From Minisyncoccota bacterium (GTDB lineage Bacteria; Patescibacteriota; Minisyncoccia; Phycocordibacterales; CSBR16-119), in the NCBI GenBank assembly GCA_041389105.1, contig JAWKSO010000002.1, positions 18,336 through 82,335 of the forward strand: a stretch of DNA of 64,000 nucleotides, in the 5' to 3' direction. Below, one piece after another: positions 17,770 to 62,433 of the stretch. A program made the position numbers and the translations under genes. The stretch's first letter is position 1. Every line of letters begins with the position of its first letter. The notes below the pieces were generated by a model that saw only the letters and a program-made list of their open reading frames with translations, was not told where the DNA came from and searched no databases.

Positions 17770-17893
17770 CACGAACGAAGTGAGTGATGCTGGACTAGAA
17801 AGAAGGGGTCTGGGAAACAAATGTTTCCCCGTGAGGAAAGCAGGACGAAGTCCGTCGGAAAACCGTGGGTTTCCGAGGTCCGTATGTCCAGCA
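17770..17893 (+). repeat. tRNA-3'-end-associated structured insert, copy E (family 2)
   Basis: TGCTGGACTAG (17788-17798) is the reverse complement of the tRNA 3' end CTAGTCCAGCA. The insert also has a GAAGGGGTCTGGGAAAC core, three hairpins, and a terminal GTCCAGCA (17886-17893) repeating the tRNA end. Confidence 0.6.
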
Positions 17894-18044
17894 ACTGAAT
17901 TTGGTTGCTTGTAAGCGAAGCGTTCCATATCAAAAAAGCGGAAATTCACTTTGCTAATGTTTTCGCACGTTAGGAGAAAACACAAGAAGAAGGCTAGAAA
18001 TAAATGTATTCAAACTTTTTCTCAAAATAAGGTAAAATAAATCT

Positions 18045-18486
18045 ATGAAACAAAAACATAAGGTTAGAATTGCTGTATTCGTTATCCTGGAAAAAGGAGA
18101 CGAAATTCTCTTACTCAGAAGAGCTAACACTGGGTACGCAGACGGACAATACCAAATGCCATCTGGGCATGTTGAATTAAATGAATACCCCTACTGAAGC
18201 CGCGATTAGAGAAGCGAAAGAAGAGGTTGGTGTAGATATTGAAACAGATGATATAAAATTAGTTCACACATCTTACCGAATAACACCCGACAATCATGAA
18301 TATGATTACATTGATTTTTTCTTTAAAACAAATAAATGGTCAAACGAACCCATAAACGCAGAGCCAGAAAAGTGCTACGAAATAATTTGGACGCCAATTA
18401 AAAAATCTGCCTTCTACTGTTCCGGTAATTAAAGAAGTGCTTGAATATATTTACAAAGGAATTTCTTTTTCTGAGATAGGTAGATA
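18045..18486 (+). CDS. NUDIX hydrolase (frameshifted)
   Basis: The Nudix box is split: ...PSGHVELNE / TPTEAAIREAKEEVG. ORF 18181..18432 holds the core, and the tail to 18486 is in another frame. Confidence 0.7.
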
Positions 18487-18494
18487 AAAACTAT

Positions 18495-18887
18495 ATGAAA
18501 TATCTATACCACGGATCAGTAACTCAAAATATAAAAACCTTAGAACCAAGAAAAAGATTTACCCCAAACGGCGAAATTAATTACTCTGCTATTTATGCGA
18601 CTCCTTCTATTGGTTTTGCTGTATGCCATTCTTTCCCTTGGTCAACAAACGAAGGTGTTGATCTAAGCATCGAAGATGGAAAAATCAAGATGGTGATTCC
18701 GAAAGATTTAGAAGGAAGACTTTTGGTTCCAATATCTGTATATAAAATAGAAGATACTAATTTTGAATTAACAAAAGAAGAATCTACGGGATACACCTGG
18801 CACTCAATAAAGCCTGCTGGAATTTTAGAAGAAATACAATACAAAAATGTTTTAGAAGCAATGAAAGAAAAACAATGTGGAAATTAA
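18495..18887 (+). CDS. hypothetical protein (130 aa)
   Basis: Intact ORF with no recognisable motif. Confidence 0.5.
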   Translation: MKYLYHGSVTQNIKTLEPRKRFTPNGEINYSAIYATPSIGFAVCHSFPWSTNEGVDLSIEDGKIKMVIPKDLEGRLLVPISVYKIEDTNFELTKEESTGYTWHSIKPAGILEEIQYKNVLEAMKEKQCGN

Positions 18888-18916
18888 ATTATCTTAATCT
18901 GCTATAATATAAAAAT

Positions 18917-19635
18917 ATGACAGAAGGAAAACCATTAAGACCAAAGCGTCTTTCAATAGATGAAATAAAAAGTGGATGTATCTATCTCACAAAAGGCGAC
19001 GAAACAGAAACTCGTATTTGTGTTGTGAACGAAGAATTTCGACAAGGCTTCGAAATGGTCAAAGCTCACAAGGACAACGGAAAGTCTGCGACTTTTTGGG
19101 GTTCTGCTCGTCTTAAAGAAGACCACGAAGACTACCAAAGAGCTTGGCGACTTTCTAAAAGAATATCAGGAGAGCTCGGATACAGCATCGTCACAGGCGG
19201 TGGACCAGGTATCATGGAAGCTGGAAACAGAGGCGCATACGAAATGGGAAAACCTTCTTTAGGTTTAACTATAAAGCTTCCGATGGAACAATACACAAAT
19301 AAATATGTCACGGAAGAAATTCCTTTTACTTTTTCTTCACACGAAAAAGTTTTAATGGCTTATTCTGCAGAAGCTTACCTTTACTTCCCTGGTGGATTTG
19401 GAACTCTAGACGAACTTTTTGAGATTTTAACACTCGTTCAAACTGGGAAAATTTCTAAAGTGCCGATAATCTTAGTCGGTAGAAAATTCTGGGAACCTCT
19501 ACAAGGATTTATAGACAACACACTTCTTAAAGAATTTGAAACTATCTCTCCAGAAGATTTAAATTTAACACAATAACAGACGACGAAGACGAGATTGTCG
19601 AAATAGTAAGAAACGCCCCGATGCGAGATGAATAG
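18917..19635 (+). CDS. LOG/TIGR00730-family nucleotide phosphoribohydrolase (C-terminal frameshift near 19565)
   Basis: Carries GGGPGIMEAGNRGA and PGGFGTLDELFE. The last approximately 20 aa (TITDDEDEIVEIVRNAPMRDE) are in another frame. Confidence 0.8.
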
Positions 19636-19673
19636 AAATAAATAGAACTAAACTAAAACCGCGTGAGTGGATT

Positions 19674-59699: not shown

Positions 59700-59897
59700 C
59701 ATAAAAAACAGTAGTGCCTTTCGGCGCTTTTATTTTTTGAGCGGGGAGATGAGCTAAAAAGCACTCGCGTGCTTTGCGTGCGGGAATCGAAAGGCGCAGG
59801 TATATTTTTGTTTGAGCTTTGCGAAAGGCAAAAATACCGAGCCGGGGTCGCGAAATTTTTCCGTCAGGAAAATATTTGTGACCGATCCGCAATCTTT
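59700..59897 (+). repeat. tmRNA-3'-end-associated structured insert, copy B (family 1)
   Basis: Terminator at 59713-59739. GGGGAGATG (59743-59751) and GCGGGAATCGAA (59780-59791) are reverse complements of the tmRNA acceptor 3' strand and T-arm. Also has a GCAC-TCGC-GTGC hairpin, the core GAGCCGGGGTCG, a TTTTCC/GGAAAA hairpin, and GTGAC followed by a degenerate tmRNA 3' end CGATCCGCAATCT. Confidence 0.65.
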
Positions 59898-60102
59898 CTT
59901 ACATTTGACTTATAGTCTAAGTCAAATTTTCTTTGATTTTTTAATCCAAATAGTTTTAGATTTATTTATCATCTAATCTCTGGCATTCTTTTTCATGAAG
60001 TATCTGTTAGATATTTAAAGAAGACTTTAAAATAGATATTATTAAAGCTCGGACATTAAAATTCGTATTCCAATCGAAGCTCTTCTGCTTGTATCTCTAA
60101 TG

Positions 60103-61102
60103 TTAGAATATCAGAATTGTAGGTCTCAAACCTGAGCCTTCCGAGCCTCCGTTAGATGTAATTGTATCTCCAGGAATAATCAAATAATAATCATGATTAA
60201 ATTGTTTTGTTCTATCAAGAATTAATCTTTCAATATCTCTACGATTACTACTATATTCGTTAGTTAAATCATTAATAATTTCATCTCTGGTTGGAGGTGG
60301 GTCATTTACCGGCTCTGGATTAAATACCTCTATAGAACATTCAGTTTCTTTTTTTCTCTCCGGTACTCTTTATTTCTGCAAAATCCAAGCCGTATTTACC
60401 TCTTTCTTTAAAAATCTAAACGAGTAAATTCCAACATCATATTTCTCTCATATGCAGAACTTATCCAAGCAATATCGTAGTCTTTTATATCTCCAAAGCT
60501 TGGAGTTAATTTAATTTTAAATTCCTCACCAACCCTAATAATATTATCAGCGACCAAGTATGGCGAAATATGTAAATTTTAGATTTTCTATGGTTAATTT
60601 TTCAAACAGGTGCATACTATTGGTAAGGACGTTATGTAGTAGTAACTGTTGGTTTTACTATATTTTTATCGACTTTTTTAACTTCATATCTTCCATTAAA
60701 ACTTCTGATTACTTCCGTATCTTGAACTTCATCATTTAAAAAAACATTTTCTTCTATTTCTAGCTCTTTTTTTATCCAGGTCAATCAAAGACAATTCTTT
60801 ATTTATCAACTCTTTTTATATCTCCATTCAGATCATTTGATATATTTTTTAATCTTTTTTGTATTTCTATTAATTTTATTTTTAAATCAATTTTAGAGAA
60901 TTCATTTGTCTCTAAATTAAAAGAATTAAACAGATTTTTATTAATCTCTATTAACTTTTCAGCTTTTTTTCTCTTTAGAGAAAGCAAAAGGAAACTTCCT
61001 GAATAAATCCACTATTTTTACGATTAATATCTTGAGCGTGCGAAACGGTTGGTAGTAAGTTAACTAAAGAAACGCTGTTATAAATAAAGTTTTTATTTTC
61101 AT
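60103..61102 (-). pseudogene. secreted protein paralog 2, heavily frameshifted
   Basis: Signal-peptide-like start MKIKTLFITAF.., an internal ...ECSIEVFN... motif shared with paralog 1, and many stops and shifts. Very AT-rich. Confidence 0.4.
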
Positions 61103-61144
61103 ACTATATCACTATTTAGTTTATAAGCTCGTTCTTAATTAAAA

Positions 61145-62070
61145 ACTTGTATTGGGCATTCAAATTCTTTTCTTCACCTGTATCTCTTACTTTTTTGCAA
61201 TAAAAGATAGGCTGTATTTACCTGTCTTTGGAATCCTAAAAGAATATATTCCGTCATCATATATTTTTCTTTATAAGCTGAGCTTTCTTGCCAAGATATA
61301 TTATAATTCCTTTAATTTCTCCCAAATTTGAGTCAGCTTTAACTTAAAATAATCTCCGGCAACTATCGCATTATTTGGGGGACCAAACACATAGAACATC
61401 TAAAATTTAAATTTTCCAAACTTATTTCTTCCAACTGATTAGTCTCAGGGATACAACCGCCAGAGGCCGGAATCAAAATGGCCGAAGTGTATCCGTCCTT
61501 ACATGAATGAATTATTTTAGTAACAGGATCAAAAATATAATACTTACCATTAAATTCGTAATTTGTAACCACCCAATCATAAGAAGAAATATTATTCTTA
61601 TATTCAGAACATTCCATACTTTTCTTTTGTCTAAGAAAATCTGATTGACCACAGTCTAAATATAGGGGTTAGAGTCAACCCAAGATCAGAATAAATACAG
61701 ATAAATTTTTTAGGTTTAGGTTTAATATAACTTTGATAATAAACACTATTACTTGACCTTTGACCTAAATCATATATACTTTTTCCAAATTACAATAATC
61801 TTTATCAGTTACGTACAAGCTAGCGGGTATCCCATTTAGACCCCCTGGTTCCATAGGAATCATTATACAAACCATCACTAGGTTTATATCCATAATTATC
61901 ATATTTTAAACCATTTGGATTACTTCTAACATGAGGAGCTTACATAAGTACCATTGCTTTTATAGTAACCCTTAACGCTAACATGTTTTACGAGTTCTTA
62001 TTTAAATTAAAGCTTGTAAAAATAAAAGTCCAAAAATAAAAAAACTTAGCGTTTTAATAAAATATTTCAT
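61145..62070 (-). pseudogene. secreted protein paralog 1, heavily frameshifted
   Basis: Start MKYFIKTLSFFIFGLLFLQA, includes ORF 61363..61617, and ends ...EFECPIQVFN-TAA. DNA-level similarity to 60360-60560 is visible by eye. Confidence 0.4.
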
Positions 62071-62208
62071 ATATTTAATGATACGGATTAACCTTGCTTT
62101 GTCAAACGGTTTAATATCTCTATTGTGTCTTTAAACTATTGCAAATACTCACTGTTTTATATACTCGCTCACCAGCTGATGCTCACTTAAAAACAAAAGC
62201 TCCTAGTT

Positions 62209-62433
62209 GGTTCGAACTTTTCTTAATATGTCCACACCCTAAAATATTAGTGCCTTTCGGCGCTTTTATTTTTGAGGGAGATGAGCAAAGCACCTGCGTG
62301 CTTTGCGTGCGCGGAATCGAAAACCGCAGCGTTATGCGAATTCTATGTTATCGCGAGGTGGGGTCGAGAGTACTTAGATTTTTCGAGCTTGTCGAAGAAA
62401 AAAGCGCCAGTAACTCGTGACCGATGATCCGAC
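62209..62433 (+). repeat. decayed ssrA 3'-end copy plus structured insert, copy C (family 1, chimeric)
   Basis: GGTTCGAA...TCCACA (62209-62236) is a degenerate tmRNA T-arm and 3' end. 62248-62339 is about 85% identical to 59712-59800 (copy B left half). 62352-62421 is about 80% identical to 27517-27584 (copy A right half). It ends GTGACCGATGATCCGAC. Confidence 0.6.

Follow-up and report, generated by a model that had tools for sequence, protein, structure and literature searches.

Genomic islands and prophages that carry a tyrosine integrase insert between the T-loop and the acceptor end of tRNA or tmRNA genes, or at the end of a protein gene such as icd. They supply a replacement for the gene end that they displace, leave the old end behind as a direct repeat and, through repeated integration, can form tandem arrays; where the target is a protein gene, synonymous changes distinguish the replacement from the old end. 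Programmed targeting is known from other elements. In IS110 and IS1111, a bridge (or seek) RNA borne by the element holds a complement of the target, varying with the target, beside a conserved folded scaffold. The OMEGA systems of IS200/IS605 elements (IscB or TnpB with an omega RNA) join a guide to a scaffold, on its 5' side in IscB, follow a homing logic and have gene-less derivatives mobilised in trans, the palindrome-associated transposable elements (PATEs) and miniature inverted-repeat transposable elements (MITEs). GIY-YIG homing endonucleases, free-standing or encoded in group I introns, reside in or beside conserved genes, co-convert their flanks and have a hot spot in the T-loop; the T-loop of the transfer-messenger RNA (tmRNA) hosts group I introns, which is the nearest published point of comparison (PMC11915505). 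In hairpin recombination sites, such as the CTX phage attP(+) used by XerCD or the integron attC, two inverted target-like copies tens of bases apart can fold, with a small central mismatch beside the crossover point. Here, we describe five short inserts associated with tRNA and tmRNA genes in a 64,000-nucleotide (nt) stretch of the genome of a Minisyncoccota bacterium (contig JAWKSO010000002.1; hereafter, the window), which belong to cassettes that resemble each of these systems in some of these respects.

The inserts (A to E, Table 1) fall into two related families, are about 110-190 nt in size and contain no open reading frame (ORF). All five were found where a preliminary description of the sequence had placed them, each beside the tRNA or tmRNA gene named there, or as an orphan in the case of C. 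They are mobile, horizontally spreading, gene-less and non-autonomous cassettes that replace the ends of conserved genes, and every cassette carries an inverted copy of its own target end fused to a conserved folded scaffold. In the window, the targeted part runs from the T-loop to the acceptor of tRNA and tmRNA genes. Read outwards from the gene, a cassette comprises a replacement copy of the gene end, which keeps the gene intact; a loop, usually a terminator; an inverted copy that covers the initial 10-28 nt of this replacement and in many cases extends a few bases (up to ~7) past the insertion point; and the scaffold, which follows the inverted copy without a gap. The gene end that the host had before is displaced downstream, where it persists as a decaying direct repeat.

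The claim that the complementary segment co-varies with whichever gene is adjacent held in a matrix of all segments against the nine tRNA-type 3' ends. The longest match was with the insert's own tRNA or tmRNA (8 nt for A, 12 for B and 11 each for D and E), compared with 3-6 nt for unrelated tRNAs and a best off-target match of at most 5 nt for A, 6 for D and 5 for E. The reason for this co-variation is that, in every cassette, the inverted copy is a mirror image of the end targeted by that cassette. Part of the 8-nt match of A is the palindromic TCGA found in every T-loop, and 11-mers with up to one mismatch are expected 0.78 (D) and 0.41 (E) times in shuffles of the window. The exceptions in the matrix involve tRNA-Thr, whose T-arm resembles that of the tmRNA: the C segment matches both equally (9 nt each), and that of B also has an 11-nt match to tRNA-Thr. 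Target duplications are likewise present at A, D and E (lengths in Table 1) and only in degenerate form at B and C, and the hairpins and the GTGAC junction named earlier were recovered. The shared motif fared less well: GGGGTC[GT] occurs in all five inserts, whereas the full literal form proposed, GA[AG]G..GGGGTC[GT], occurs in none, with variable spacing throughout and GAGCC in B. In family 1, GGGGTCG pairs with the terminal GTGACC and closes the 3' hairpin. A hidden Markov model (HMM) of family 2 matched only D and E in the window, and by this measure the six other GGGGTCK sites there (including 21057-21073) are chance occurrences.

A scan of metagenome contigs with the core pattern of family 2 (the D/E type) gave 125 copies at at least 120 loci (L numbers below); the census figures refer to the matches listed. 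Viral contigs gave no match with either scaffold pattern. A tRNA or tmRNA gene on the same strand ends 7-105 nt upstream (typically 26-105) of 54 of the 125 copies, and at least 17 kinds are represented: Arg, Tyr, Asn, Ala, Asp, Gly, Leu, Ser, Thr, Gln, Pro, Lys, Val, Phe, Ile and Glu tRNAs, and tmRNA. The T-loop, the 3' strand of the T-stem and often the acceptor strand of the adjacent tRNA have their reverse complement in the segment immediately 5' of (G)GGAA(R)GGGGTC, with a longest perfect match of 9.9 nt on average (maximum 21), against 5.6 nt for tRNAs of other kinds. In nearly all copies, a direct duplicate of the 3' part of the tRNA follows ~70-120 nt downstream, typically matching over 13-24 nt; it usually begins at T-loop position 58-60 and is preceded by the conserved terminus ..GCGAAGCGACGTGAGAT. 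Overall, the direct repeats measure 8-25 nt, with one of ~107 nt that includes a GIY-YIG leader (L144; see below). Family-1 copies elsewhere (L051, L052, L090, L187) obey the same rules, with a T-arm complement that includes a GAGAA variant and a junction between GTGAC and CGA(A/T)TCC. Arrays and composite copies also occur: after one tRNA-Pro gene (L122:330-1100) there is a head-to-tail array of at least three family-2 units of ~292 nt, each with its own copy of the tRNA 3' end, and in L100 and L192 two scaffolds lie inside one repeat pair. The census thus bears out the preliminary picture of a constant scaffold with a neighbour-matching segment and a target duplication, and both families are abundant in Patescibacteria. 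Copy density is very high in some genomes; the window has five copies in 64 kb, and in L090 and L187 the two families occur together within 12 kb of one contig, with three copies each.

The complement is not always perfect. In about ten copies at different tRNAs (L091, L100, L110, L114, L162, L188, L191, L199, L202 and L205), GA replaces the fully complementary TC and leaves a 2-nt mismatch opposite G57A58 of the T-loop. The inverted copy then reads ..GGA(N)GAGAAC instead of ..GGA(N)TCGAAC, opposing G.A/A.G to G57A58, and the same is seen in family 1 at L052 and L187. Its recurrence at different tRNAs points to a designed contact, not a passive copy. We also observed that GTGAGAT, at the 3' end of the element, looks like a T-loop in which GA has taken the place of TC, and that displaced old copies are often changed at positions 55-58.

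The cassettes are polymorphic for presence, as would be anticipated for mobile DNA under the preliminary description. Exact protein matches place the Patescibacteria assemblies GCA_041389125.1 and GCA_041389065.1 next to the window, which, at 97-99% identity to the former, represents a third closely related strain. Among five near-identical strains (97-99% identity, contigs with identical SmpB), the sequence 3' of the tmRNA gene differs in every one. L002 retains just the first ~90 nt of a B/C-like insert; in L001, B is cut off within its 3' hairpin and followed by ~770 nt of other DNA; L004 has unrelated sequence; and L003 has another cassette, which carries a 79-aa GIY-YIG gene (Pfam PF01541, E = 1.3e-18) and ends in AGTAACTCGTGAC followed by CGATCCGCC, a terminus and remnant of the type seen at C and B. 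The corresponding region of the window (59703-63490) consists of B, ~2.3 kb of DNA at 29-32% GC nearly free of ORFs, and then C, compared with 30 nt to ~800 nt in the other strains. The AT-rich segment is probably older inserted material. C itself looks like an older copy displaced downstream by later insertions at the tmRNA gene, given the remnant of a tmRNA end (TCCACA) that precedes it; the sequence across its right end (AGTAACTCGTGACCGATGA) has a 19-nt match in L018. Insert A has an identical copy in a strain locus (L007); around D and E, look-ups brought up no additional strains.

Contrary to what had been supposed, the cassettes are not specific to tRNA genes. About half of the family-2 copies have no tRNA or tmRNA gene on the same strand just upstream, and at least 12 of these copies lie at the ends of protein genes. 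Copies away from tRNAs had been named beforehand as evidence against the whole idea. They do exist; their internal segment still matches their own neighbour, and so the idea is widened rather than refuted. Many keep the same layout, at the 3' ends of rplL (L108, L124) and of rpsG just before fusA (L106) and at the 5' ends of lepA (L142) and, in opposite orientation to the cassette, of dnaK (L089). The order is constant: gene, replacement end, short loop or terminator, inverted copy, scaffold and displaced old end, with the inverted copy covering the first 13-28 nt of the replacement end. These sites reveal where the new ends come from. In dnaK, the new and old ends differ at 10 of 51 nt with a single amino-acid change, and in rplL at 2 of 29 nt with none. 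Differences that are almost exclusively synonymous indicate that the new end was brought in by the cassette; judged by this substitution pattern, the replacement ends are horizontal imports from another lineage, and both versions evolved as working genes. At tRNA sites where the two ends differ, the inverted copy agrees with the new end in 12 cases and with the old one in two. Since some targets, at 5' ends, lie on the opposite strand, recognition of the target transcript is unlikely.

To find linked proteins, we clustered the ORFs around the 125 listed family-2 copies, using distances of up to 1 kb and up to 4 kb. The recurrent clusters were housekeeping genes, many of them targets, and a small GIY-YIG nuclease family (5 loci), a partner that the preliminary description had not considered. 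The linkage to an IS110-type, TnpB, IscB or integrase gene that it did propose was not borne out: no tyrosine or serine integrase, DEDD recombinase, TnpB, IscB, TnpA or other transposase recurs within 4 kb of the listed copies, no reverse transcriptase lies within that distance, and no recombinase was present among the ORFs tested beside the window inserts. The 79-aa GIY-YIG protein has more than 700 homologues, mostly of 79 aa among the matches listed, whose named source organisms are Patescibacteria lineages. Among relatives of solved structure, the UPF0213 proteins BH0048 and EF2693 are nearest to it, and the structure-specific nuclease Slx1 comes next.

We examined the context of this gene in 80 loci from GTDB genomes (L008-L087), in addition to the strain locus mentioned above (L003:2009-2443). 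A tRNA or tmRNA gene on the same strand was called just upstream in 59 of the 80, and in nearly all of those the GIY-YIG gene starts ~90-165 nt past its 3' end; in the remaining loci with enough upstream sequence, the leader mostly follows an acceptor-CCA remnant. The leader is strongly conserved: CCA directly followed by CTTCGC, a hairpin, T(A/T)CGCGGTGCnnGCAC ... GCGAAGTGGTG, and then CCCCGCGAAGC-loop-GCGAAGTGGGG. In brief, it reads as CTTCGC, hairpin, TTCGCGGTGCnnGCAC ... GCGAAGTGGTG and a CCCCGC..GUGGGG hairpin with a conserved G-U pair. Its segment GCGAAGTGGTG(GA/A) complements the last bases of the tRNA plus CTTCGC. The tRNA genes without a GIY-YIG cassette mostly have no encoded CCA. 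As with the scaffold cassettes, a displaced old tRNA 3' end follows several of the GIY-YIG cassettes (20 nt in L065, 12 nt in L062; also L067, L069 and L070).

The two kinds of cassette meet at several loci. In L051, L052, L032, L112 and L144, a scaffold cassette lies between a tRNA and an older tRNA end that bears the GIY-YIG leader and gene, and in L013 the GIY-YIG gene is followed by a family-1 scaffold ending in AACTCGTGAC at the junction with CGATTCCCGAC. The family-1 3' terminus, AGTAACTCGTGAC followed by CGAT, is shared with the GIY-YIG cassettes of L003, L018, L069 and L013, and the family-2 terminus GTGAAATAAC(G/A)AAGTGT with that of L032; in both instances, nesting could give the same picture. 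GGGGTCG is only slightly denser near GIY-YIG genes than elsewhere in those loci (0.13 versus 0.07 per kb). Matches of the GIY-YIG leader HMM to B and C proved to be an artefact of family-1 inserts within two of the training loci. The link between scaffolds and the GIY-YIG gene is, thus, real but loose. At L112, one GIY-YIG gene (3700-4002, minus strand) lies upstream of a tRNA-Ser gene and is preceded by a 13-nt copy of the tRNA 5' end (GGAGAGGTGGCTG), which hints at a variant directed at tRNA gene 5' ends. On its 3' side, this tRNA-Ser gene is accompanied by a family-2 cassette and another GIY-YIG gene.

The scaffold has a conserved fold. Its P2 hairpin (..AACC-N3-5-GGUU..) can form in 70 of 112 distinct copies, compared with 4 of 112 shuffles, and GC, CG, AU and UA pairs all occur at four stem positions. 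These figures come from direct analysis of the stems; RNAalifold applied to 40 family-2 scaffolds recovered just the hairpin fixed by the search pattern, with P2 misaligned by MAFFT. Searches of the window and related loci against Rfam 15, at gathering and permissive thresholds, returned only tRNA, tmRNA and chance hairpin-type matches, and no description of these elements was found in the full-text literature. They are apparently a large, undescribed family.

The defining protein and RNA features of the known systems compared are absent from these cassettes. Of the island traits, the repeat of the tRNA 3' end and the restored tRNA were found and the integrase gene was not. Islands span kilobases and encode their integrase, whereas the cassettes have 110-190 nt, no gene and no integrase within 4 kb; att sites, moreover, lack a conserved folded scaffold and an inverted target copy, both of which the cassettes have. 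IS110 and IS1111 rely on a DEDD (RuvC-like) recombinase, which does not accompany the cassettes, and on two loops with split guides that read opposite strands, in contrast to a single contiguous complement of 10-28 nt; they leave a 2-nt core repeat instead of one of 8-25 nt or longer, and Rfam matches none of the cassettes. No IscB, TnpB or TnpA gene was found with the cassettes. Omega-RNA guides copy the flank outside the element in sense orientation, whereas the cassette guide lies within the element and is the antisense of the adjoining flank. Insertion of IS200/605 elements, moreover, leaves no target duplication; nearly all cassette copies have one. MITEs have terminal inverted repeats and a fixed short duplication, unlike the cassettes, which have no such repeats of element origin and duplicate 8 to ~107 nt.

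Homing elements share presence/absence polymorphism and flank co-conversion with the cassettes, and a GIY-YIG nuclease occurs in sister cassettes (L003, L008-L087), although in none of the five window inserts. With its 79 aa, the nuclease consists of a catalytic domain and lacks a DNA-binding domain; among solved relatives, it is nearest to UPF0213 and Slx1 and not to I-TevI. Most cassettes are gene-less and have no intron core or splicing, and they duplicate the gene end instead of splitting it. There was no Intron_gpI match at E <= 10 and no terminal G, and the upstream tRNA or tmRNA is complete. As for hairpin recombination sites, the cassettes have no link to Xer or IntI, no sequence relationship to dif or attC and no phage or integron-cassette context. 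Group I and group II introns, hammerhead and hairpin ribozymes, box C/D RNA, permuted tmRNA, integron attC and Xer sites were each rejected for lack of their defining features in the sequence.

Of the possibilities raised in the preliminary description, non-autonomous miniature elements mobilised in trans agree best with the census, the polymorphism, the tandem arrays and the imported ends, which argue against both decayed scars and a fixed tRNA-linked non-coding RNA. We tentatively favour the reading that the inserts are ORF-less mobile cassettes homing into conserved gene ends, which are recognised by the inverted copy and scaffold together with an enzyme supplied in trans. The inverted copy and scaffold, as RNA or as folded single-stranded DNA, would form a recognition module that pairs with the target gene end and recruits the enzyme, for which the best candidate is the 79-aa UPF0213/Slx1-like GIY-YIG nuclease of sister cassettes at the same sites. 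This enzyme would break the element-free allele, and repair would copy the cassette in, the gene body and the displaced end serving as left and right homology arms, respectively. The restored gene end is still a target, and repeated hits explain the tandem arrays. Several observations weigh against this proposal. The restored gene end still matches the 'guide', so that a nuclease following a simple homing logic would attack the allele that carries it. Between the junction and the point where the inverted copy ends, there is a variable offset of 0 to 7 nt. No GIY-YIG protein is encoded in the window, its five inserts included (tblastn), and an enzyme in cis is generally missing, with the GIY-YIG gene beside just ~5 of 120 listed scaffold loci and scaffolds in ~5 of 80 GIY-YIG loci. 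The GIY-YIG leader has no detectable sequence homology to the scaffolds (an HMM of its last 75 nt had no match), and the complement in the GIY-YIG cassette pairs with a junction that exists solely in occupied sites, which looks like an interaction in cis. Finally, G-U pairs in the stems are not in excess of A-C pairs (6 versus 10); a transcribed guide RNA is not demonstrated by them, and an RNA fold cannot be told from a single-stranded or cruciform DNA fold on this basis.

The target-programming segment of the preliminary description is, therefore, confirmed as a complement and not established in its programming role; it may instead be a mere inverted hairpin arm of the replacement end. In that scenario, the main rival, which we consider possible though doubtful, the cassettes would be just as mobile, but the inverted copy would not guide targeting: it would merely supply the 3' arm, and the replacement end of the same cassette the 5' arm, of a long hairpin or cruciform. 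This structure would function in cis, in termination, processing or recombination. Copying and gene conversion between the arms would maintain the match, and the cassettes would spread by DNA uptake and homologous recombination, with the conserved gene and the displaced end as arms. The arms are indeed perfect over 23-28 nt with a loop of just 5-6 nt in L108, L106, L158 and L171; at tRNAs the terminator sits at the hairpin apex; arm length is variable; and G-U pairs are nearly absent. The inverted copy tracking the new and not the old end (12 versus 2), the analogous pairing of GIY-YIG cassettes with their own junction and the lack of an enzyme in cis fit as well, as do the type IV pilus components encoded in the window, which are of the sort that competence systems use. 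What such a hairpin leaves unexplained is the conserved scaffold at a fixed joint with the inverted copy, the recurrent mismatch at T-loop positions 57-58 and the origin of matching arms at a new target, and it offers no drive for a gene-less insert across so many lineages and targets. A small ribozyme, with the inverted copy as an internal guide (cf. P1/P10 of group I introns) that cleaves or reverse-splices at the target before fixation in DNA, seems improbable. The order of the guide, with the 3'-exon complement before the 5'-exon complement, is that of a group I internal guide, and group I introns are known from the T-loop of the tmRNA (PMC11915505). Only ~90 nt of scaffold lie 3' of the guide, however, the 3' ends are GTGAGAT or GTGAC with no terminal G, Rfam has no intron or ribozyme match even at E <= 10, no reverse transcriptase is nearby, and with opposite-strand targets the target transcripts cannot be the substrate. 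It is very improbable that the inserts are decayed attL-attR scars of islands or prophages that were integrated at tRNA genes by a tyrosine or serine integrase and later deleted. Three classic traits of tRNA-integrating islands are present, namely a direct repeat of the tRNA 3' end, restoration of the tRNA and tandem arrays, and there is extra AT-rich DNA at the tmRNA locus; such scars would not present the same ~100-nt scaffold with covarying stems at at least 120 loci and many targets, at a uniform size and with complete ends, with no integrase within 4 kb of any listed copy and no match in viral contigs. A vertically inherited, immobile regulatory or processing RNA linked to tRNAs would account for a folded sequence on the same strand directly 3' of the tRNA. 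That reading is already contradicted by the presence/absence differences among strains 97-99% identical and by the copies at protein-gene ends on either strand; the imported replacement ends and the displaced, decaying old ends also speak against it, and its probability is close to nil. Under the homing interpretation that we prefer, a bolder claim could be made: that the cassettes represent a new class of nucleic-acid-guided DNA insertion, in which a ~100-nt scaffold and a 10-28-nt 5' complement alone specify landing at the ends of essential genes, the guide is rewritten from the target at each site and the trans-acting protein may be as small as a 79-aa GIY-YIG domain without a DNA-binding domain. 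We regard this as unlikely.

Table 1. Features of the five inserts and their targets in the window (window positions).
Feature	Positions	Strand	Remarks
E target: tRNA-Gln(CTG)-like gene, aberrant T-loop	17700-17770	+	ARAGORN; context homologous to tRNA-Gln loci L132, L148
Insert E (whole)	17771-17885	+	After tRNA-Gln(CTG)-like gene; ends ..CCGTATG
E loop ACGAACGAAGTGAGTGA, tRNA end to inverted copy	17771-17787	+	ACGAAC..GTGAG loop in other loci
E inverted copy ('guide') TGCTGGACTAG	17788-17798	+	Reverse complement of tRNA positions 17758-17768
E family-2 scaffold	17799-17885	+	Family-2 HMM E = 9.2e-12; GGGGTCT 17805-17811; hairpins P1 from 17812, P2 ~17857-17874
E displaced old tRNA 3' end GTCCAGCA, 8-nt repeat	17886-17893	+	
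D target: tRNA-Asp(GTC)	26886-26960	-	
Insert D (whole)	26728-26885	-	After tRNA-Asp; ends ..GTGAAACTCC
D trailer and terminator hairpin accompanying replacement end	26830-26885	-	From reading of the sequence
D inverted copy GGGACTTGAAC	26819-26829	-	Reverse complement of tRNA-Asp T-loop and T-stem
D family-2 scaffold	26728-26818	-	Family-2 HMM E = 4.6e-18; 3' end ..GCGAGCAGTGAAACTCC; GGGGTCG 26806-26812, P1 26787-26806, P2 26754-26772
D displaced old tRNA-Asp 3' end and first trailer bases	26703-26727	-	15 nt exact match; 25 nt by eye
A target: tRNA-fMet	27324-27396	+	27377-27396 is first copy of 20-nt repeat
Insert A (family 1)	27397-27584	+	Terminator, AAAGCA hairpin from 27454, inverted copy GACTCGAA 27478-27485, variable hairpin, GGGGTCG 27525-27531, 3' hairpin, GTGAC 27580-27584
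A displaced old tRNA-fMet 3' end	27585-27604	+	20/20 bases match; own terminator follows
B target: tmRNA gene	59321-59702	+	
Insert B (family 1)	59703-59882	+	Terminator, GGAGATG 59745-59751, AAAGCAC hairpin from 59758, inverted copy GCGGGAATCGAA 59780-59791, variable hairpin, GGGGTCG 59844-59850, 3' hairpin, GTGAC 59878-59882
B degenerate displaced tmRNA 3' remnant CGATCCGCAATC	59883-59894	+	Starts CGAT; near-identical in L003: CGATCCGCCAAC
AT-rich segment between B and C, few ORFs	59895-62229	+	Not in closest strains
Insert C (family 1), with left-edge tmRNA-end remnant TCCACA	62230-62421	+	Orphan copy 62241-62421; terminator, GGAGATG 62277-62283, hairpin from 62287, inverted copy CGGAATCGAA 62312-62321, GGGGTCG 62360-62366, GTGAC 62417-62421
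C degenerate displaced remnant CGATGATCCGACA	62422-62434	+	Starts CGAT

The window is a low-GC chromosomal segment with eight tRNA-type genes and one tmRNA gene, and it encodes SecA, RNase J, BipA, CTP synthase, type IV pilus genes, RecG, FtsH and SmpB. The tRNA targeted by E may be damaged or unusual: its T-loop reads TCTGAGT, its T-stem is mismatched, its anticodon call by ARAGORN is unclear and the Rfam tRNA model stays below threshold, with no match even at E = 10. The loop that follows it recurs 3' of Gln, Ile and Thr tRNAs (L132, L205, L160), and in looser form after Thr and Arg tRNAs (L157, L166). At the tmRNA locus, a weak Rfam match to permuted tmRNA (59675-59752, E = 0.04) reflects the acceptor complement in B and was discarded; the tmRNA 3' end, spacer and GGGGAGATG of B mimic the acceptor piece, spacer and 5' strand of a two-piece tmRNA. 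Elsewhere, the window carries a tRNA-Ser with anticodon ACT, and thus A at position 34 (47444-47530, minus strand), a normal tRNA-Ser(GCT) (49566-49655) and a tRNA-Ile(TAT). Several genes appear fragmented (28901-29335, 26359-26625 and 18181-18432): an amidase ORF spans just profile positions 82-213 of 445, and there are an 88-aa glycosyltransferase fragment and a NUDIX fragment. In a sister strain (L006), CTP synthase and DNA ligase are each called in several pieces. These genes are either pseudogenes or the product of frameshift errors in assembly.

If the inverted copy and scaffold truly direct insertion, they would constitute a very compact, naturally reprogrammable targeting module, possibly combined with one of the smallest nucleases known, in organisms that, to our knowledge, largely lack CRISPR. 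The small UPF0213 GIY-YIG proteins, which as far as we know have long been without an assigned role, gain a concrete genomic context. Even if the inverted copy has no such role, cassettes without genes of their own are scattered densely through Patescibacteria genomes, where they substitute foreign versions for the ends of tRNA, tmRNA, ribosomal-protein, EF-G-neighbour, DnaK and LepA genes. Such horizontal replacement inside core genes affects phylogenies as well as annotation, through pseudo-ends and apparent tRNA fragments, and the cassettes explain hypervariable regions beside tRNA and tmRNA genes in metagenome-assembled genomes of the candidate phyla radiation.

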